A stretch of 5,850 nucleotides of DNA from a virus (lineage: Duplodnaviria; Heunggongvirae; Uroviricota; Caudoviricetes): IMG/VR virus record IMGVR_UViG_2698536449_000009, one strand, 5' to 3'. Under the pieces are notes generated by a model. It searched no databases and was not told the DNA's origin. It was given only the letters and a program-made list of their open reading frames with translations. The stretch's first letter is position 1, and every line of letters begins with the position of its first letter. This document shows positions 3 to 5,850 of this stretch, one piece after another. The position numbers were made by a program, and so were the translations under genes.

Positions 3-419
3 CAGTATCCGGATGGTAAGCCGCCGGTATGGGCAAAGTGTACGAAAGGTGTGTATCCGTCTTACTGGGAAGAATGGAAAAAAGTCAGGGAGGTGGTAAA
101 AGTTGCCTGTCCGGAGTGTGGCGGAAAGGGTGAGGTTTCCACCGCCTGTAAGGATTGCCGTGGGCGTGGTGTCGCCATTCATCGTGAAGAGTCGGTAAAA
201 CGTGGTATGCCTGTTATCAGAGACTGCCAGCGTTGTGGTGGTCGTGGCTATGAAAGACTACCATCAACGGAGGCATTTAATGCTATATGCGAGGTGACAA
301 ACCAGATAACACGCGCGTCATGGGAAAAAACAGTTAAGAAATTCTATGATGCGCTGGTGACTCGGTTTGATATTGAAGAAGCATGGGCTGAGCGGCAGTT
401 AAAAAAGGTAACTAGGTAA
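3..419 (+). CDS. Q: Antitermination protein Q, lambda family, C-terminal part (5' end lies upstream of the window)
   Basis: Frame is open from position 3 to TAA at 417-419. Translation has paired CxxC zinc-finger motifs (CPECGGKG...CKDCRGRG...CQRCGGRGY) and the C-terminal pattern TVKxxYDALV...VTR, which matches my recollection of lambda Q. Followed immediately by a PR'-like promoter and a terminator. Confidence 0.8.
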   Translation, partial: QYPDGKPPVWAKCTKGVYPSYWEEWKKVREVVKVACPECGGKGEVSTACKDCRGRGVAIHREESVKRGMPVIRDCQRCGGRGYERLPSTEAFNAICEVTNQITRASWEKTVKKFYDALVTRFDIEEAWAERQLKKVTR

Positions 420-424
420 CAAGG

Positions 425-452
425 TTGATTTTTCCGGAATCTGTGGTAAATT
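425..452 (+). promoter_or_regulatory. PR'-like late promoter (-35 TTGATT 425-430, 16-bp spacer, TG-extended -10 TAAATT 447-452)
   Basis: Hexamers and spacing read directly; it sits just after the Q stop as in lambdoid phages. The Q-binding (qut) site would overlap this region, which is an inference. Confidence 0.6.
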
Positions 453-458
453 CGTCAT

Positions 459-524
459 AACAATGGGCGTTTTATGCCTGACGTTAGAAGAGTTTCTACA
501 ACCCGCCGCCGAGCGGGTTTTTTA
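459..524 (+). ncRNA. Short PR'-initiated, tR'-terminated leader RNA of about 65-70 nt (lambda 6S / StxS-like)
   Basis: Predicted start about 7 nt after the -10, ending at the intrinsic terminator 501-524. Position and size resemble the short PR' transcripts described for lambdoid and Stx phages. Inferred from promoter and terminator only. Confidence 0.35.
501..524 (+). terminator. tR'-like intrinsic terminator
   Basis: Stem ACCCGC (501-506) / GCGGGT (513-518) with a 6-nt loop, followed by a T6 run. Confidence 0.7.
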
Positions 525-643
525 TGACTGAAATCGCGTCAGTACAGTAAACGCGCTGGTGGCGGTGAATACCTGTCTTTCAGCTTGCTGGCTTTTTCGA
601 CAAGAGTTATTGGTGTGTCACGTTAACCGGAAAAGGAAAAGAC

Positions 644-841
644 ATGCTAAAACAGCAGGATATGACAGAAACCGCCAGAGTGGTGTTTAATGAATTAAGC
701 GTTACCGAACCGGCGACAGTCGGGGAGATAGCGCAGAATACTTACCTTTCACGCGAACGCTGCCAGTTAATACTGACCCAGCTGGTTATGGCGGGTCTGG
801 CAGACTATCAGTTCGGTTGTTACAGACGCCTTCCGCAGTGA
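644..841 (+). CDS. Small hypothetical protein (65 aa), predicted winged-helix DNA-binding fold
   Basis: ATG at 644 has an AGGAAAAG Shine-Dalgarno-like sequence about 6 nt upstream. The pattern ...TVGEIAQNTYLSRERCQLILTQLVMAGLADYQ... looks like a helix-turn-helix recognition helix plus wing. Function not recognised. Confidence 0.5.
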   Translation: MLKQQDMTETARVVFNELSVTEPATVGEIAQNTYLSRERCQLILTQLVMAGLADYQFGCYRRLPQ

Positions 842-868
842 AGGCTTTTTTATTTGTGGTAAATGGGC

Positions 869-899
869 GGCTGGTGGGTGTTAGGGGCACCCACCAGCC
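869..899 (+). promoter_or_regulatory. Perfect 12-bp stem / 7-nt loop hairpin in the intergenic region upstream of the methyltransferase
   Basis: GGCTGGTGGGTG (869-880), loop TTAGGGG, CACCCACCAGCC (888-899). No U-tract follows, so it is not a canonical intrinsic terminator. Confidence 0.4.
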
Positions 900-991
900 A
901 TCTGCTCATGCGTTGGGTTCACAAGCAAACCTCAGGCCCACTGCTTTGCGCAAAAGCAGAATGAGCCTATCAGAGACAGGCTTAATGATCC

Positions 992-2050
992 ATGCTTAAT
1001 ACTGTAAAAATATCCAGTTGTGAGTTAATCAACGCCGACTGCCTGGAATTTATCCGGTCGTTACCCGAAAATTCTGTTGACCTGATAGTCACGGACCCGC
1101 CGTACTTTAAAGTGAAGCCTGAGGGCTGGGATAACCAGTGGAAGGGCGACGATGATTACCTGAAGTGGCTGGACCAGTGTCTGGCGCAGTTCTGGCGGGT
1201 GCTGAAACCTGCCGGAAGTCTTTACCTGTTCTGTGGTCATCGCCTGGCATCTGATATCGAAATCATGATGCGTGAACGCTTCAGTGTGCTGAACCATATT
1301 ATCTGGGCGAAGCCGTCCGGACGCTGGAACGGATGCAACAAGGAAAGCCTGCGGGCGTATTTCCCCGCCACAGAGCGCATTCTGTTCGCGGAACATTATC
1401 AGGGGCCGTATCGTCCGAAAGATGCCGGGTATGCGGCGAAGGGCAGTGCACTGAAACAGCATGTGATGGCCCCGCTGATTTCTTACTTTCGTGATGCGCG
1501 AGCTGCCCTGGGGATAACGGCAAAACAGATTGCAGATGCCACAGGAAAGAAAAACATGGTGTCGCACTGGTTCAGTGCCGGTCAGTGGCAGTTGCCGAAT
1601 GAAAGCGATTATCTGAAATTACAGGCGCTGTTTGCCCGGGTGGCAGAAGAGAAGCATCGGCGTGGTGAACTGGAAAAGCTCCACCACCAGCTGGTGGATA
1701 CGTATACCTCACTGAACCGGCAGTATGCGGAGCTGCTGAGTGAATATAAACATCTGCGGCGGTATTTTGGCGTGACGGTGCAGGTGCCGTATACCGATGT
1801 GTGGACGCATAAACCGGTGCAGTTCTATCCCGGGAAACATCCGTGCGAAAAACCGGCAGAAATGCTGCAGCAGATAATCAGCGCTAGCAGTCGTCCGGGT
1901 GACCTGATTGCAGATTTTTTCATGGGGTTGGGTTCGACAGTGAAAGCGGCACTGGCGCTCGGGCGTCGTGCAATTGGCGTTGAGCTGGAGACTGAACGTT
2001 TTGAGCAGACGGTTCGGGAAGTACAGGATTTAGTCAGCCAGAACGGATGA
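992..2050 (+). CDS. DNA methyltransferase, beta-class N6-adenine/N4-cytosine family (motif IV before motif I)
   Basis: N-terminal ...SVDLIVTDPPY (DPPY at nt 1094-1105), an HPCEKP motif, and a C-terminal AdoMet-binding FxGxG motif (DFFMGLGST), then GVELE. 352-aa ORF. No adjacent restriction endonuclease gene, so it looks like an orphan phage methylase. Confidence 0.9.
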   Translation: MLNTVKISSCELINADCLEFIRSLPENSVDLIVTDPPYFKVKPEGWDNQWKGDDDYLKWLDQCLAQFWRVLKPAGSLYLFCGHRLASDIEIMMRERFSVLNHIIWAKPSGRWNGCNKESLRAYFPATERILFAEHYQGPYRPKDAGYAAKGSALKQHVMAPLISYFRDARAALGITAKQIADATGKKNMVSHWFSAGQWQLPNESDYLKLQALFARVAEEKHRRGELEKLHHQLVDTYTSLNRQYAELLSEYKHLRRYFGVTVQVPYTDVWTHKPVQFYPGKHPCEKPAEMLQQIISASSRPGDLIADFFMGLGSTVKAALALGRRAIGVELETERFEQTVREVQDLVSQNG

Positions 2051-2090
2051 TATTGAAGAATTAATTACGCGTCGTTATTATGCGGCTCCC

Positions 2091-2125
2091 GGCCCTTTAG
2101 CTCAGTGGTGAGAGCGAGCGACTCA
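2091..2125 (+). pseudogene. tRNA-Ile 5' half (positions 1-35, ending in the anticodon loop), non-functional fragment
   Basis: 35 nt identical to the 5' part of the intact tRNA at 2298-2332, then an abrupt switch at 2126 into sequence identical to the Q 3' end (383 onward). Confidence 0.75.
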
Positions 2126-2159
2126 ATGGGCTGAGCGGCAGTTAAAAAAGGTAACTAGG

Positions 2160-2187
2160 TTGATTTTTCCGGAATCTGTGGTAAATT
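2160..2187 (+). promoter_or_regulatory. PR'-like promoter, second copy (-35 TTGATT 2160-2165, -10 TAAATT 2182-2187)
   Basis: Same hexamers and 16-bp spacer as the first copy; it lies upstream of the intact tRNA genes and the cargo ORF. Confidence 0.55.
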
Positions 2188-2235
2188 CGTCATAACTATG
2201 GGCGTTTTATGCCTGACGTTAGAAGAGTTTCTACA

Positions 2236-2259
2236 ACCCGCCGCCGAGCGGGTTTTTTA
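2236..2259 (+). terminator. tR'-like intrinsic terminator, second copy
   Basis: Same hairpin ACCCGC / GCGGGT followed by a T6 run. Confidence 0.65.
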
Positions 2260-2297
2260 TTGCGGAATTAATTACGGACCGTTATTATTCTGCTCCC

Positions 2298-2373
2298 GGC
2301 CCTTTAGCTCAGTGGTGAGAGCGAGCGACTCATAATCGCCAGGTCGCTGGTTCAAATCCAGCAAGGGCCACCA
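2298..2373 (+). tRNA. ileZ: tRNA-Ile, anticodon CAU (lysidine-type, reads AUA); phage ileZ-like
   Basis: 76 nt. Acceptor GGCCCTT / AAGGGCC, D-stem GCTC / GAGC, anticodon loop CTCATAA (CAT at 2331-2333), T-arm GCTGG-TTCAAAT-CCAGC, discriminator A and CCA. Close to E. coli tRNA-Ile2 as I recall it. Confidence 0.9.
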
Positions 2374-2473
2374 TCACAAACCGCCATTAGCTTATCAGGA
2401 AGAGCAGACGACACGATAACAGGGTTGTTGGTGCGGGGGCGGGTCCCCGATGGCGGTCCATTATCGGTATTCA

Positions 2474-2550
2474 GCGTTGTTAGCTCAGCCGGACAGAGCA
2501 ATTGCCTTCTAAGCAATCGGTCACTGGTTCGAATCCAGTACAGCGCGCCA
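2474..2550 (+). tRNA. argN: tRNA-Arg, anticodon UCU (reads AGA/AGG); phage argN/argO-like
   Basis: 77 nt. Acceptor GCGTTGT / ACAGCGC (one G-U pair), D-arm GCTC...GAGC, anticodon stem ATTGC / GCAAT with loop CTTCTAA (TCT at 2508-2510), T-arm ACTGG-TTCGAAT-CCAGT, discriminator G and CCA. Confidence 0.9.
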
Positions 2551-2687
2551 TATTCATTCTTCCAGATTCCTTCCGGCAGAGCCTTATACTGAAATATACC
2601 TGGCTCAGGATATTGTTGAAAATATTTTATGTTTGTCAAAAATAAAAGTTCTGTTAAGTATTGATTGAGTGTTTGTTATACGGTCTA

Positions 2688-3014
2688 ATGGTTTTTTCAG
2701 CATTAAATATTTATCATTCATATGGTGTGGGTAGAGTGAATATTGATGAGGCGTCGGGGTGTTTCATCCTTAGGCAGCGTATTGATATAGTCAATGCAGC
2801 ACGAGCAAAGGCCTTCAGCCGTTTGACAGTTTTGTTCTGTACTCCTGATCGTCTTTCGGGAAGAGACGTTATTATTCTGAATAGTGATGCTATACAGAGG
2901 GTTTGCGATGAGTTCATGGTTGCTAATTCAGAATTATTTGCTCTTGTTCAGGAGTACAACAGAATAGCCAGGACCTGTGGTATGGATGAACTTCGGATTA
3001 CTCATCTGGGGTAG
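2688..3014 (+). CDS. Hypothetical cargo (moron) protein, about 108 aa from ATG 2688; the frame is open from 2661
   Basis: AT-rich ORF directly downstream of the tRNAs and on the same strand, in the position Stx phages use for stxAB. By my count 6 of 12 Arg codons are AGA/AGG and 3 Ile codons are ATA. No clear Shine-Dalgarno, so the start is uncertain (ATG 2688 or GTG 2736). No recognisable family. Confidence 0.45.
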   Translation: MVFSALNIYHSYGVGRVNIDEASGCFILRQRIDIVNAARAKAFSRLTVLFCTPDRLSGRDVIILNSDAIQRVCDEFMVANSELFALVQEYNRIARTCGMDELRITHLG

Positions 3015-3066
3015 ATACATATCTGGATTATCACCTGTTACGGTAAAAAGTGATTGCTTACTGTTT

Positions 3067-3096
3067 TTGTGAATGGCATTGCAGCAGCCGGATAAT
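3067..3096 (+). promoter_or_regulatory. Candidate sigma70 promoter (-35 TTGTGA 3067-3072, 18-bp spacer, -10 GATAAT 3091-3096)
   Basis: Hexamers read directly. Predicted start near 3103 at the beginning of the 307-bp repeat, giving a roughly 325-nt transcript to the terminator at 3407-3429. Speculative. Confidence 0.25.
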
Positions 3097-3118
3097 GTCA
3101 GTGCTGGCTGACGGTGTG

Positions 3119-3425
3119 CTGGTGGCGGGTGTGGTGGTTGTTGCTTTCCCGTTGCTGAAAAAGAAAACGCCAGACTGTTAGCCGGGTATCAGTTAGCGGG
3201 AGAAATTTTTAAATACTTCACAATTCAGGCGGTTGACTGTTGTCTGGTTTGCGGGGAGTTTGTTAAAAGAAACTGGCATGGTGAATCCCCCTGTGCGGAG
3301 GGGCAATCAGCGAGTAGGTATATGGGATAATCGCGGATTCAGGTGCTGGTACTGAATTCACCGGGAGGCACCCGGCATCATGCAATGGCACATAGCGCCA
3401 CTCTCCAGCCCTCTCCGGAGGGGCT
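3119..3425 (+). repeat. 307-bp direct repeat, copy 1 (structured, ends in an intrinsic terminator)
   Basis: About 99% identical to 4754-5061 (one substitution, one 1-bp indel). Contains several hairpins and no ORF with a start codon spanning it. Confidence 0.9.
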
Positions 3426-3429
3426 TTTC
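3407..3429 (+). terminator. Intrinsic terminator at the end of repeat copy 1
   Basis: AGCCCTC - TCCG - GAGGGGCT (one-base bulge) followed by TTTTC. Confidence 0.6.
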
Positions 3430-3657
3430 TGTGCCGGATACATCACAGTTTCTGGAACCTTAGGTACTACAGTATCAGTCAGGGTGCTATATTTTCAGAT
3501 GTGATGAAAGCCTGTCAGCAGGCAGGGCGTATCGGAAATGACCCAGTAGAGAAAACGTTGACTCAGATACCGGTGCTGAGTTACCGGGAAACCGGCATCA
3601 CATGACCGCTATCCTGAGGTGTACTGGCAATAGCGGACACTACCATTTGTTCTTTTT

Positions 3658-4476
3658 TTAAGCAGCCATCTGATGATATTTTTCCCTGAAGGCTGCCGGG
3701 GAGATATTCCCCAGACGAGAGTGACGACGCTGACGATTGTAGAAAATCTCAATGTATTCCCGTATTACTGAGATGGCTTCATCCCGGTTATTAAAACGAT
3801 AGTGGCTCAGGCTCTCATTTTTCAGCGTTCCCCAGAAGCTTTCCATCGGAGCGTTGTCGTAACAGTTACCTTTACGCGACATTGATGTTTTCAGACCAGA
3901 CTGCTCCTGTATGACCCGGTAATCGTATGCGCAGTACTGTGAACCTCGATCAGAGTGGTGGATTAGCCCGGCAGGTGGGCGCTGGCTCCTGAGCGCCATA
4001 AACAGGGCTTTACCTGTCAGCTCTTTTGTCATGCGCTCTCCCATGGCGTAGCCGACAATTTCGCACGTATAAACATCTTTGATGCCAGCGAGGTACAACC
4101 ATCCCTCCTGTGTGGCAACATACGTCAGGTCCGCCACCCAGACCTGATTTGGTGCTGTAGGAGCGAACGTCTGGTTCAGCAGATTTGGCGCAACTGGCAG
4201 ATTGTGGTTCGAGTTCGTAGTCGCTCTGAACTTGCGTTTCTGCTTACAGCGTAGCCTTAGCTCCTTACGAAGACGTGCCAGTCGGTCACGACCAACGATG
4301 ATGCCATTCTCTGCCAGCTCCGTCTGGAGCCGCCGGGTTCCATATGTTTCGCGAGTGCGGATATGTGCCACCTTAATCTCCAGTTTTAGCCGCTCATCAC
4401 TTTGTTTTCTGTCTGAGGGTTCATGCTGTACCCAGTTGTAATAACCGCTCCTGGATACACCAAATACCTGACACAT
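3658..4476 (-). CDS. IS3-family transposase OrfB (DDE integrase domain); in vivo made as an OrfAB fusion by -1 frameshift
   Basis: 272-aa ORF starting MCQVFGVSRSGYYNW and containing HSDRGSQY and SMSRKGNCYDNAPMESF motifs. The orfB frame stays open upstream to the A7 slippery site. Confidence 0.9.
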   Translation of the reverse strand: MCQVFGVSRSGYYNWVQHEPSDRKQSDERLKLEIKVAHIRTRETYGTRRLQTELAENGIIVGRDRLARLRKELRLRCKQKRKFRATTNSNHNLPVAPNLLNQTFAPTAPNQVWVADLTYVATQEGWLYLAGIKDVYTCEIVGYAMGERMTKELTGKALFMALRSQRPPAGLIHHSDRGSQYCAYDYRVIQEQSGLKTSMSRKGNCYDNAPMESFWGTLKNESLSHYRFNNRDEAISVIREYIEIFYNRQRRHSRLGNISPAAFREKYHQMAA

Positions 4477-4511
4477 CGCTTCAATGGGAAATTGTTGTCG
4501 CCATTGTTCGA

Positions 4512-4753
4512 TTAACGCGTATTTTTCAGCGACTCCTGTGCAAAATACGCTGTTGCTTTTTTTAATATATCTCGCTCAAGGCGAGCTTCATTTAACGCCT
4601 TACGCAGTTGCAGAATTTCAGATTCCAGTTCAGCCACCGTGCGGGAACCAGGAGTACCGAGCCCTTTTCTGGCGGCGGTAACCCATTGTCCTAAAGTGCC
4701 TTCAGGAAGAGATAATCGGGAAGCGCCTTCACTGATCGAAAGTTGATTTTCAA
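4512..4753 (-). pseudogene. IS600-like orfA, 5'-truncated (no start codon, N-terminal DNA-binding region lost)
   Basis: orfA frame ends at TAA (forward 4512-4514). Upstream the frame runs into the 307-bp repeat without a plausible start codon. Confidence 0.75.
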
Positions 4754-5061
4754 CTGGTGGCGGGTGTGGTGGTTGTTGCTTTCCCGTTGCTGAAAAAGAA
4801 AACGCCAGACTGTTAGCCGGGTATCAGTTAGCGGGAGAAATTTTTAAATACTTCACAATTCAGGCGGTTGACTGTTGTCTGGTTTGCGGGGAGTTTGTTA
4901 AAAGAAACTGGCATGGTGAATCCCCCTGTGCGGAGGGGCAATCAGCGAGTAGGTATATGGGATAATCGCGGATTCAGGTGCTGGTACTGAATTCACCGGG
5001 AGGCACCCGGCACCATGCAATGGCACATAGCGCCACTCTCCAGCCCCTCTCCGGAGGGGCT
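4754..5061 (+). repeat. 307-bp direct repeat, copy 2
   Basis: Begins exactly where IS identity stops (4753/4754) and ends at the terminator hairpin. Confidence 0.9.
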
Positions 5062-5069
5062 GTTTATAT
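5042..5069 (+). terminator. Terminator hairpin at the end of repeat copy 2; possibly bidirectional
   Basis: Perfect 8-bp stem AGCCCCTC / GAGGGGCT with loop TCCG, followed by GTTTATATT. The stop of the convergent minus-strand gene is about 30 nt away on the other side. Confidence 0.5.
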
Positions 5070-5096
5070 TGATTTTGTCAGATGTGAGTAAACTCC

Positions 5097-5432
5097 TTAT
5101 GGACTTTGTTGTTTTAGTCCATAAGGACATATTTGCAGAGTGCAACGGTTATTAAAGCATTCATTCAATACGTTATCTGTATTTGTAGGGCATTCCTGGC
5201 TATTTTTGATTGAATTCCAGAATGTTTTATTGAATGGTACTACGTTGTAAATGGTTACAGGTAGCACTTTGTTATTGAGCATGATGCCTGTGTGAGTCAG
5301 TGTAAATATACTTTCAGGAGGTAAGAAAGCATCCGATTGATACCAGATTATTAATTTTATTTTACTCCATATGACTGAAAAAGATATTCCGCATGATGGC
5401 TGGATAACTGTATCAATCACAATCCACTTCAT
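5097..5432 (-). CDS. Hypothetical protein (111 aa), AT-rich orphan moron gene convergent to the late operon
   Basis: Strong Shine-Dalgarno on the minus strand (AAGGAAACTAA then ATG). Five cysteines, Asn/Ile/Lys-rich. About 260 bp of AT-rich sequence upstream with candidate -10 TATACT (forward 5473-5478). No family recognised. Confidence 0.55.
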
Positions 5433-5692
5433 TTAGTTTCCTTGTTTATGCCTTGCTGGTGATGTTCTGAAAAGTATAAATGATATTTTTGAATGTAAAC
5501 CATAGAGCAGAATTATTTTTCTGATGTTGTTTATTGTTTATTTAAATGCAGGGTGGTTTATATCTCGTCTTGTAGTTTATCCATGCATATCTGCTTGATA
5601 ATCAGGTTTTTATTTAAGGTATGGTTTTGTGTTTTTTCTGTATTACATGTCAGGTATTTTAAAGAATTATTTTTCAGATGGTGGAAAGAACC

Positions 5693-5819
5693 ATGGCATT
5701 TAAACACTATGATGTTGTCAGGGCGGCGCCGCCGTCAGATCTTGCGGAAAAGCTGACACATAAACTGAAAGAGGGCTGGCAGCCGTTTGGTAGTCCGGTG
5801 GCCATAACCCCTTATACCC
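5693..5819 (+). pseudogene. 5' part of a small conserved lambdoid late-region gene, interrupted by IS insertion at 5820
   Basis: ATG at 5693 encodes MAFKHYDVVRAAPPSDLAEKLTHKLKEGWQPFGSPVAITPYT, then the IS end TGAGGTG... begins. I recall this N-terminus from small proteins just upstream of holin genes in E. coli prophages (DUF1737-like, from memory only). Confidence 0.55.
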
Positions 5820-5850
5820 TGAGGTGTACTGGCAATAGCGGACACTACCA
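5820..5850 (-). mobile_element. Terminal 31 bp of a second IS600-like copy, same orientation as the first; continues beyond the window
   Basis: Identical to 3615-3645 (TGAGGTGTACTGGCAATAGCGGACACTACCA). Confidence 0.75.

Follow-up and report, generated by a model that had tools for sequence, protein, structure and literature searches.

The lambda late promoter pR' carries AACGAT at +1 to +6, followed by a discriminator-like GGG sequence (PMC4005639). A short RNA derived from PR' has been described for Stx1 and Stx2a phages. This RNA, StxS (EcOnc15), binds Hfq and is produced when RNase E cuts a 258-nt transcript to 74 nt (PMC7547250). Two late-promoter units stand in tandem in the DNA analysed here, a stretch of 5,850 nt from a Caudoviricetes record (IMGVR_UViG_2698536449_000009), referred to below, at its full length, as the window. 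A preliminary description had interpreted the pair as a duplicated segment. Allele identities, and joints found nowhere else, indicate instead that the pair brings together alleles of two prophages, designated P1 and P2, and is not one locus copied. The two copies are probably the PR'-tR' modules of two lambdoid prophages, brought into tandem when stretches of P1 were patched into the late region of P2.

Layout of the repeats

A repeat search and pairwise alignment of the 5.85-kb window confirmed that the 143-bp segment 383-525 recurs as a 135-bp segment at 2126-2260, both on the plus strand, as had been described. This likeness far exceeds chance in 5.85 kb. The copies show two differences, an 8-bp indel and one substitution (A462 versus T2197). 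The indel, AACAAGGT, occupies positions 418-425 of copy 1, just 5' of the -35 hexamer, and is missing in copy 2. Copy 1 harbours the last 12 Q codons, PR'(1), a leader and the terminator tR'(1). It is the 8-bp-plus allele, matching P1 of Shigella sonnei, plus a private A at 462. Copy 2 harbours a 35-nt untranslated Q tail, PR'(2), a pause element, a leader and tR'(2), and is the 8-bp-minus allele, matching S. sonnei P2.

A second repeat, absent from the preliminary description, abuts the first: 2051-2125 is 91% identical to 2258-2332. A tRNA promoter-like site and a tRNA leader lie in it, together with the 5' half of tRNA-Ile2(CAT) as far as the anticodon loop. The overall structure is thus A (383-525), B (526-2050, wHTH and methylase), C (2051-2125), A' (2126-2260) and C' (2258-2373, with the full tRNA). 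A and A' are ~99% identical, C and C' 91%. In C (plus strand) the tRNA promoter-like site reads TTGAAG-17-TATTAT (2053-2081) and the tRNA is cut in the anticodon loop; ARAGORN called no tRNA at 2051-2125, and the truncated tRNA is dead. C' and the native P2 sequence that continues it (2258-2550, plus strand) contain a tRNA promoter-like site followed by two tRNAs, an intact tRNA-Ile2(CAT) at 2298-2373 and a tRNA-Arg(TCT) at 2474-2550.

The genes between and behind the repeats are arranged as the earlier reading of the sequence had it. Copy 1 lies upstream of a wHTH-like ORF (65 aa, 644-841) and an N6/N4 DNA methylase gene (992-2050), copy 2 upstream of the two tRNAs and a 117-aa cargo ORF (2661-3014). 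The wHTH ORF and the methylase gene form a module found in P1 only (526-2050, plus strand). Pfam matches in this module were to PF01555 (E 7.9e-42) and, weakly, to TrmB (E 0.0026). A terminator scan located a terminator-like hairpin with a T tract (828-845) in the same module.

Q gene, late promoters and predicted leader RNAs

The window opens with the 3' part (138 codons, 3-419, plus strand, stop TAA at 417-419) of a Q antiterminator gene of the lambda-Q family (Pfam PF03589, E 9.5e-32); the N-terminal part of Q falls outside the window. A full-length homologue of this Q shares 32% identity with lambda Q (BLASTP, E 4e-41). Allele comparison showed that the window's Q is of P2 type at two synonymous sites, 344 and 362. 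The gene lies directly 5' of copy 1 only, while for copy 2, which retains the 35-nt Q tail, it lies 1.7 kb upstream.

The putative sigma-70 promoter PR'(1) (425-452, plus strand) has a -35 hexamer TTGATT (425-430), a 16-nt spacer and a -10 hexamer TAAATT (447-452); a TG at 443-444 within the spacer was read as part of an extended -10 (TGgTAAATT). The corresponding hexamers of PR'(2), read from the same strand, are at 2160-2165 and 2182-2187. In both copies the -10 is that of lambda pR', and the spacer between -35 and -10, the presumed Q-binding region, is identical. The hexamers fit the consensus at 8 of 12 positions; a generic promoter scan with a threshold of 9 therefore did not flag them.

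A sigma-dependent pause element, AACNATGGG, is located six bases past the -10, the same offset as in lambda pR'. In copy 1 it reads AACAATGGG (459-467, plus strand; AACAAT followed by GGG) and in copy 2 AACTATGGG (2194-2202, plus strand). The counterpart in lambda is AACGATGGG, as it is in homologues including that of Salmonella phage F1055. Both copies retain A at the second and T at the sixth position of the element, and both depart at +4 from the family consensus AACGAT. The A of copy 1 at this position (462) was present in no other sequence compared.

Each unit ends in an intrinsic terminator on the plus strand. tR'(1) (500-525) consists of a 7-bp GC-rich stem (500-519) and a T6 tract (520-525), tR'(2) (2235-2260) of a stem at 2235-2254 and a T6 tract at 2255-2260. 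By analogy with lambda, transcription is predicted to start at A459 and A2194, which would give plus-strand leader RNAs of ~67 nt (putative ends 459-526 and 2194-2261), within the 65-70 nt proposed earlier. Leader RNA 1 would fold into two small hairpins followed by the terminator (-19 kcal/mol). The z scores of the leaders range from -1.4 to -1.7, and with a z of -1.4 the fold is unexceptional. The two predicted RNAs differ solely at +4 (A versus U). An Rfam search found no family for the leader, giving only weak, terminator-driven matches to Trp_leader (E 0.056 and 0.6), and a literature search with promoter and leader sequence strings retrieved no papers.

Conservation of the unit is highest in the promoter. 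The -35 to -10 region is 98% conserved over seven lineages, with 1 of 28 columns variable, a near-invariance no more than suggestive of a Q-binding element in the spacer, and +1 to +41 is 94% conserved versus 79% for the Q 3' coding sequence, 76% for the terminator and 49% downstream. The terminator hairpin and U tract are kept in all eight lineages, with altered stems. With a lambda-family Q, the lambda -10 and pause element, a conserved -35 to -10 region and a retained terminator, both copies fit their earlier assignment as Q-3'/PR'/tR' units.

The PR'-pause-tR' unit is an ordinary module of a known kind, one that prophages of E. coli and Shigella carry very often. It was found in 2,496 of 5,426 complete E. 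coli genomes, in one to four copies per genome. The copy 2 layout, with Q, PR', tR' and tRNA directly adjacent, occurs in ~1,236 E. coli genomes and in phage mEp460; the copy 1 layout, with wHTH and methylase between tR' and tRNA, is native in ~1,052 E. coli genomes. The remark that two copies of the Q target are unusual was borne out: the promoter core occurs just once in each of the 33 related loci containing it.

Two parental prophages and their joints

P1 and P2 occupy separate loci, with one PR' each, in every S. sonnei genome examined, for example at about 2.10 Mb (P1) and about 1.31 Mb (P2) in HE616528.1. The order in P1 is Q-PR'-tR'-wHTH-methylase-tRNAs-STnc100-IS600 and that in P2 is Q-PR'-tR'-tRNAs-cargo-STnc100-PmrD-like-DUF1737::IS600. 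Across the window the segments alternate as P2/P1/P2/P1/P2. Nine S. sonnei P1 loci match positions 526-2125 at 100% identity, and two S. sonnei P2 loci (L022 and L027) match positions 2126-3377, also at 100%. Positions 4754-5850, too, are 100% identical to P2 loci of these genomes, which have IS600 inserted at the very same point in DUF1737. A four-way alignment placed a homologous crossover from P2 to P1 in the interval 3248-3377 (plus strand), inside an STnc100-like element; P2 markers end near 3247 and P1 markers begin at T3378. An IS600-family element on the minus strand (3615-4753), which is without ~125 bp at its orfA end, came with this second P1-derived piece (3378-4753).

The two returns to P2 are blunt, non-homologous joints. 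At J1 (2125-2126), according to a three-way comparison, the P1 tRNA anticodon loop (…GCGACTCA) is joined to the P2 Q 3' end (ATGGGCTG…), with GCGACTCAATGGGCTGAGCGG as the spanning 21-mer. J2 (4753-4754; spanning 21-mer TTGATTTTCAACTGGTGGCGGG) joins the interior of IS600 to P2 sequence. It re-enters P2 at the equivalent of 3119, resulting in a 293-bp direct repeat (3119-3411 and 4754-5046). No ORF spans J1. The exact J1 string was absent from genome, viral and metagenome contigs and from the related loci retrieved, and the exact J2 string from genome and metagenome contigs. BLAST searches gave no contiguous match across J1 in phages and 5,426 complete E. coli genomes, nor across J2 in the same 5,426 genomes. 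Both joints were absent from phage, viral, metagenome and species-representative collections. Exact-protein lookups with the methylase, the cargo ORF and the PmrD-like ORF gave matches limited to canonical P1 or P2 loci, and for a 53-aa ORF across the STnc100 crossover such a lookup found no record. The tandem arrangement rests on one sequence.

Origin of the tandem pair

Under the proposed patching of P1 DNA into P2, two near-identical late promoters stand 1.7 kb apart because pieces of two resident prophages were spliced together. From the left end, the mosaic would run with P2 alleles to about 362-417, then with P1 to the tRNA anticodon loop at 2125, followed by a blunt return to P2 sequence at 2126, in the Q 3' end, and P2 continuing to STnc100. 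A homologous change to P1 within 3248-3377 would lead through P1 into IS600 up to 4753, with a second blunt return to P2 at 4754. For both P1 pieces the exit from P2 would thus have taken place via homology and the re-entry shortly upstream of the exit, a pattern that would fit template switching in repair synthesis or homology-anchored illegitimate recombination. A further reading, which is unlikely, is that the P2/P1/P2/P1/P2 order with re-entries near the exits is a clean natural case of template switching over several rounds, with paralogous prophages as the templates. Counting against the patching, two blunt joints and five alternations of segments in 5.8 kb could also come from a chimeric assembly. 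The tandem layout looks like a recent one-off recombination scar, or else an assembly error, and not like an evolved control device.

An assembly or library chimera, with P1 and P2 separate in the organism and the tandem pair existing in this record alone, is possible but rather doubtful. It would account for the fact that every segment matches, exactly or with one base different, one or the other of two loci present together in S. sonnei genomes, for the absence of J1 and J2 from all collections searched and for five alternations in 5.8 kb. However, graph assemblers join at shared k-mers, while J1 and J2 lack shared sequence. Moreover, both re-entries are on the same strand and in the same locus, at ~35 bp and ~130-260 bp from the exits, unlike random chimeras, and the private base A462 is found in neither parent. 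At first sight the A-B-C-A'-C' order, in which a repeated unit seems to have lost its interior, suggests that the unit was duplicated in place within one prophage and that its second copy later lost the methylase module. This is extremely improbable given the 91% identity of C and C' versus ~99% for A and A', the 100% match of A-B-C to the P1 allele and of A' onward to the P2 allele, and the position of A' directly before C', which is a common native layout. Simple tandem duplication was rejected on the basis of the two parental loci and the unequal divergence along the unit.

It is very unlikely that the pair was retained by selection, either for a doubled dose of a regulatory short RNA or for separate control of methylase and cargo. 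Both units are intact, and PR'-derived short RNAs act as regulators in other phages, as exemplified by StxS (PMC7547250), but the arrangement is a singleton in a decayed prophage. Its copies are undiverged from their parents, which leaves no time for selection. A doubled short-RNA dose had been put forward in the preliminary description; reference S. sonnei genomes, with both alleles at two loci, have the same dose already, and the number of copies in E. coli genomes is one to four. Separate control is also at odds with the expectation that tR'(2) should not halt polymerase that Q has modified at copy 1. A reading of the repeat as just a Q tail and a terminator, with no promoter and no short RNA beginning inside it, could draw on the 8/12 hexamers, the unremarkable leader fold (z -1.4 to -1.7) and the lack of an Rfam family match. 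It is nevertheless highly improbable: the -10 is exactly that of lambda with AACNATGGG at lambda's offset, the -35 to -10 region is near-invariant while the adjoining coding sequence drifts, and the site right after a lambda-family Q is where the promoter would be expected.

Predicted expression and implications

Since each copy has all lambda-type parts, it is reasonable to predict a short terminated RNA from each and read-through in response to Q. Without Q, each copy would make a constitutive, terminated RNA of ~67 nt. With Q, polymerase loaded at either copy would read through, and the methylase module would be expressed from copy 1 only and the tRNA and cargo region from both copies. The suggestion that the pair uncouples methylase from cargo does not agree with this scheme: without Q both lie behind terminators, and with Q, copy 2 should not stop polymerase that was loaded at copy 1. 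Because the prophage has decayed by IS600 insertions, it is possible that no Q is produced at all. It appears unlikely that the ~67-nt PR' leader is an unrecognised trans-acting short RNA of lambda-Q-type prophages, to which the patchwork would have added a second expressed allele and a chimeric RNA. Judging from the sequence, such a chimeric RNA could run from the orphaned tRNA promoter (2053-2081) to tR'(2) and contain the tRNA 5' half followed by Q tail and leader.

If real, the arrangement means that paralogous prophage remnants in an IS-rich, Shigella-type genome swap kilobase patches, and that such exchange can stack late promoters, terminators and a tRNA promoter without selection for that outcome. 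Duplicated control elements of this kind caution against inferring design. The PR'-pause-tR' unit itself should yield a constitutive ~67-nt RNA, and on whether that RNA has a function the tandem pair adds little.

Comparison with known systems

The window shares with the lambda late unit a Q of the PF03589 family (32% identity), a putative promoter just after Q with an identical -10 (TAAATT), a -10-like AACNAT followed by GGG 6 nt past the -10 and an intrinsic terminator that would end a short constitutive transcript. The lambda leader (6S RNA) is 194 nt long, in contrast to ~67 nt here, and there is no similarity past +9. The lambda spacer, the presumed Q-binding region, differs from that of the window, and the Q type of the window has a large DnaJ-like zinc-finger insertion, unlike lambda Q. 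At +4 lambda has a G and the window an A or T, and lambda has one unit while the window has two in tandem.

The comparison with StxS made in the preliminary description holds as an analogy. As in StxS phages, a short RNA from a constitutive PR' would be terminated at tR', and the unit occupies the slot between Q and the ileZ/arg tRNAs. Homology of sequence is absent: BLASTN of 383-540 against the Q-to-ileZ region of Sakai Sp5 gave a 24-nt terminator-like match with a different hairpin, and homology to StxS was rejected. The Q type of the StxS phages differs from that of the window, and the primary transcript here, predicted to be ~67 nt already, would need no processing step.

Phage mEp460 and the E. 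coli prophages have just one of the two native layouts per locus, whereas the window holds both. The closest relatives are the P1 and P2 remnants of S. sonnei, which share 99.9-100% identity with the window, including the IS600 insertion sites, and both lack A462, the base private to the window. In S. sonnei these remnants are separate loci, whereas in the window P1 pieces are interleaved into P2 via J1 and J2.

Repeat structure

The 143-bp segment 383-525, holding the 3' end of Q, the predicted late promoter PR' and the terminator tR' (copy 1), recurs at 2126-2260 (135 bp; copy 2), exactly as claimed in the preliminary description. A repeat search and pairwise alignment revealed two differences only: an 8-bp indel (AACAAGGT at 418-425, found in copy 1 alone and lying immediately ahead of the -35 hexamer) and a substitution (A462 in copy 1, T2197 in copy 2). 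A further repeat adjoins, unmentioned before: 2051-2125 versus 2258-2332 (91 % identity), with a promoter-like site (TTGAAG-17-TATTAT), a tRNA leader and the opening half of a tRNA, as far as its anticodon loop. Copy 1 is followed by block 526-2050, which encodes a 65-aa wHTH-like ORF and a 352-aa N6/N4 methylase (Pfam), by the upstream member of this repeat, by copy 2 and, from 2258 onward, by the downstream member carrying the full tRNA. Intact tRNAs were found in the window by ARAGORN and Rfam only at 2298-2373 (anticodon CAT; homologues are annotated as tRNA-Ile in RefSeq) and 2474-2550 (Arg-TCT). The promoter-like site that precedes the tRNA is doubled (2053-2081 and 2260-2288, TTGAAG/TTGCGG-17-TATTAT), and the first one now faces the truncated tRNA and then PR'-tR' copy 2. 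A tRNA promoter was reported at the equivalent position in Sp5, the Stx2a phage of E. coli O157:H7 Sakai (PMC7547250).

Two parental prophages

Exact-protein look-ups led to Shigella sonnei chromosomes with two separate prophage remnants. P1 (e.g. HE616528.1 near 2.10 Mb; loci L001-L010) reads Q-PR'-tR'-wHTH-methylase-tRNAs-STnc100-(IS600)-nanS-p-like, and P2 (e.g. HE616528.1 near 1.31 Mb; loci L021-L030) reads Q-PR'-tR'-tRNAs-cargo-DUF3927-STnc100-PmrD-like-DUF1737::IS600. Segments of the window were compared one by one with these loci. Segment 1-382 carries the P2 allele at both of its diagnostic sites, 344 and 362, which are synonymous; 383-525 has the 8-bp allele of P1 type, and 526-2125 matches P1 at 100 % identity. 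At joint J1 (2125/2126) P1 sequence stops in the tRNA anticodon loop and P2 sequence resumes at the 3' end of Q, the two abutting bluntly with no bases in common. Segment 2126-3377 is 100 % identical to P2 (L022, L027) and includes a 117-aa cargo ORF (2661-3014, plus strand; no Pfam match, widespread in P2-type prophages) and a 43-aa DUF3927 ORF (3050-3181, plus strand). The switch from P2 back to P1 is a homologous crossover at a point within 3248-3377, inside the first of two full STnc100 matches (RF02076; 3247-3436 and 4882-5071, 122 and 132 bits, gathering score 47); a third match (3475-3663) is weak and degenerate (E 0.14). Late regions of P1/P2-type prophages appear to include this sRNA-like element as standard. 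Segment 3378-4753 is again P1 and includes an IS600-family element (3615-4753, minus strand) that lacks ~125 bp at its orfA end. It ends at joint J2 (4753/4754), where the IS interior runs bluntly into P2 at what corresponds to position 3119, creating a 293-bp repeat (3119-3411 and 4754-5046). The remainder (4754-5850) is 100 % identical to P2, with a PmrD-like 111-aa ORF (5097-5432, minus strand; PF11183 in source annotations) and a second IS600-family copy (5820-5850, same orientation as the first) that breaks the DUF1737/nanS-p-like gene (5678-5819) exactly where it does in the S. sonnei P2 loci. Duplication in place was rejected, since this mapping makes copies 1 and 2 alleles of two different prophages.

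Recombination scar or chimera

The Q-PR'-tR' module was found in 2,496 of 5,426 complete E. coli genomes, at 1-4 places per genome, and each of its two native layouts is common. The methylase-tRNA layout occurs in ~1,052 complete genomes and the layout with directly adjacent tRNAs in ~1,236, as well as in phage mEp460. The suggestion that two copies of the Q target are unusual was borne out: no second tandem instance was found, and each of the 33 related loci with the promoter core has it just once. BLAST gave no contiguous match across J1 or J2 in complete E. coli genomes or phage records, nor were the exact junction strings found in species-representative genomes, IMG/VR or JGI metagenomes.

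Both P1 pieces exit P2 within homology (Q/PR' region 362-418; STnc100 3248-3377), and each re-entry into P2, at positions 383 and 3119, keeps to the same strand and falls a little upstream of the exit. Such a structure probably results from template switching during repair between paralogous prophages, or from homology-anchored illegitimate recombination. The main rival is a chimeric assembly, suggested by the uniqueness of both joints and by the fact that each segment equals one of two loci in one genome. However, the sides of the joints have no k-mer in common, the re-entry positions do not look random and the window has a private base at 462; an assembly error is regarded as the less likely reading. 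Base 462 is A in the window, G in S. sonnei P1 and T in S. sonnei P2; A (AACAAT) was found in no other sequence, most homologues having G like lambda (AACGAT), and the best E. coli matches reach 99.3 %, never 100 %. A462 could be a mutation from the rearrangement or a sequencing error. The tandem arrangement occurs only once; it is probably a recent recombination scar, or else perhaps an artefact, and shows no sign of selection. Recombination recurs in this region, a hot spot of mosaicism. Sakai Sp5 (L039; NC_002695.2 ~1266640-1266730) has kept homology to the final ~90 bp of the methylase gene directly upstream of the ileZ leader; the methylase-tRNA junction is therefore taken as ancestral, with the Q/PR' side swapped.

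Anatomy and conservation of the unit

The ORF that stops at 419 encodes the C-terminal portion of a lambda-Q family antiterminator (PF03589, E 9.5e-32); its 273-aa full-length homologue shows 32 % identity to lambda Q (E 4e-41) and has a DnaJ-like zinc-finger insertion. The 8-bp indel sets the end of Q. With the 8 bp, the stop at 417-419 gives 273 aa; in the allele lacking them (S. sonnei P2) the annotated Q has 284 aa, 11 codons more, so that its reading frame crosses both the -35 and the -10 of the promoter that Q itself targets. In copy 1 the putative -35 TTGATT (425-430) lies five bases past the stop codon, followed by a 16-nt spacer ending in TGg, the putative -10 TAAATT (447-452) and, six bases further, the pause element AACAATGGG (459-467). 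The hexamers match 8 of 12 consensus positions, and a generic promoter scan did not list the site. In lambda, AACGAT at +1 to +6 is a -10-like sigma-dependent pause element, followed by a GGG discriminator-like sequence, with the pause at +16 (PMC4005639). By analogy, A459 and A2194 are the predicted starts. With hairpin 500-519 and T6 (520-525) of tR'(1), a terminated RNA of ~67 nt is predicted, which fits the 65-70 nt proposed earlier. Its fold is unremarkable (z -1.4 to -1.7), and an Rfam search returned no family matching the leader.

The substitution between the copies sits at +4 of the pause element (G in the family consensus and lambda, A in copy 1, T in copy 2); the most critical positions, A2 and T6, are intact in both. 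Within leader +1 to +27 (459-485, 2194-2220) the AACG 5' end pairs with CGUU around the first hairpin in most homologues, a stem that is extended in Salmonella phage F1055; because +4 is changed, the G4-C pair is lost in both window leaders.

An alignment of eight lineages (both window copies, S. sonnei P1, mEp460, four E. coli prophage types, phage Evi and F1055) showed that -35 to -10 is near-invariant (one of 28 columns variable, mean pairwise identity 98 %). Identity is 94 % for both +1 to +9 and +10 to +41, 79 % in nearby Q coding sequence, 76 % in the terminator and 49 % in downstream DNA. Hairpin and U tract are kept in every lineage while stem sequences differ. This pattern supports assignment as a lambda-type promoter unit.

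Predicted expression

Without Q, both promoters would fire constitutively and terminate, giving two ~67-nt RNAs that differ at +4. A terminator-like hairpin with T tract (828-851, hairpin 828-845) overlaps the stop of the wHTH-like ORF, which together with tR'(1) places the methylase behind two terminators; the methylase looks like a Q-dependent late gene. With Q, polymerase from copy 1 would pass tR'(1), this hairpin, the methylase, the tRNA fragment and tR'(2), and copy 2 would supply further polymerase for the tRNA/cargo region. The proposed uncoupling of methylase and cargo is therefore not expected, as copy-1 polymerase would also run into tRNA and cargo. Nor would the rearrangement raise the short-RNA dose, because reference genomes already carry both alleles. 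The orphaned tRNA promoter (2053-2081) could yield a ~170-nt chimeric RNA ending at tR'(2). IS600 cuts the late region short, so lysis output is not expected.

Comparison with known systems

Lambda pR' (TTGACT-17-TAAATT, 6 nt, then AACGATGGG) has the same -10 and the same gap to the pause element, and differs from the window unit in the -35 (TTGACT versus TTGATT), the spacer (17 versus 16 nt) and pause element +4 (G versus A/T). The description of both copies as Q-3'/PR'/tR' units is supported by the lambda-Q family gene, the lambda-like -10 and pause element and the terminator; on this sequence evidence the unit is predicted to work like a lambda-type Q/pR'/pause-element/tR' module. StxS, the PR'-derived sRNA of Stx phages, is 74 nt long and is released by RNase E from a transcript of 258 nt (PMC7547250). 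Membership of the StxS family was rejected: sequence comparison found no similarity to the Sp5 PR'-tR' region, the Q type differs and processing is not needed. The proposed likeness to lambda 6S RNA and StxS holds for position and origin only, not for sequence homology to StxS. The preliminary observation is confirmed and its interpretation partly supported: the window element is an uncharacterised, ordinary example of a known module type.
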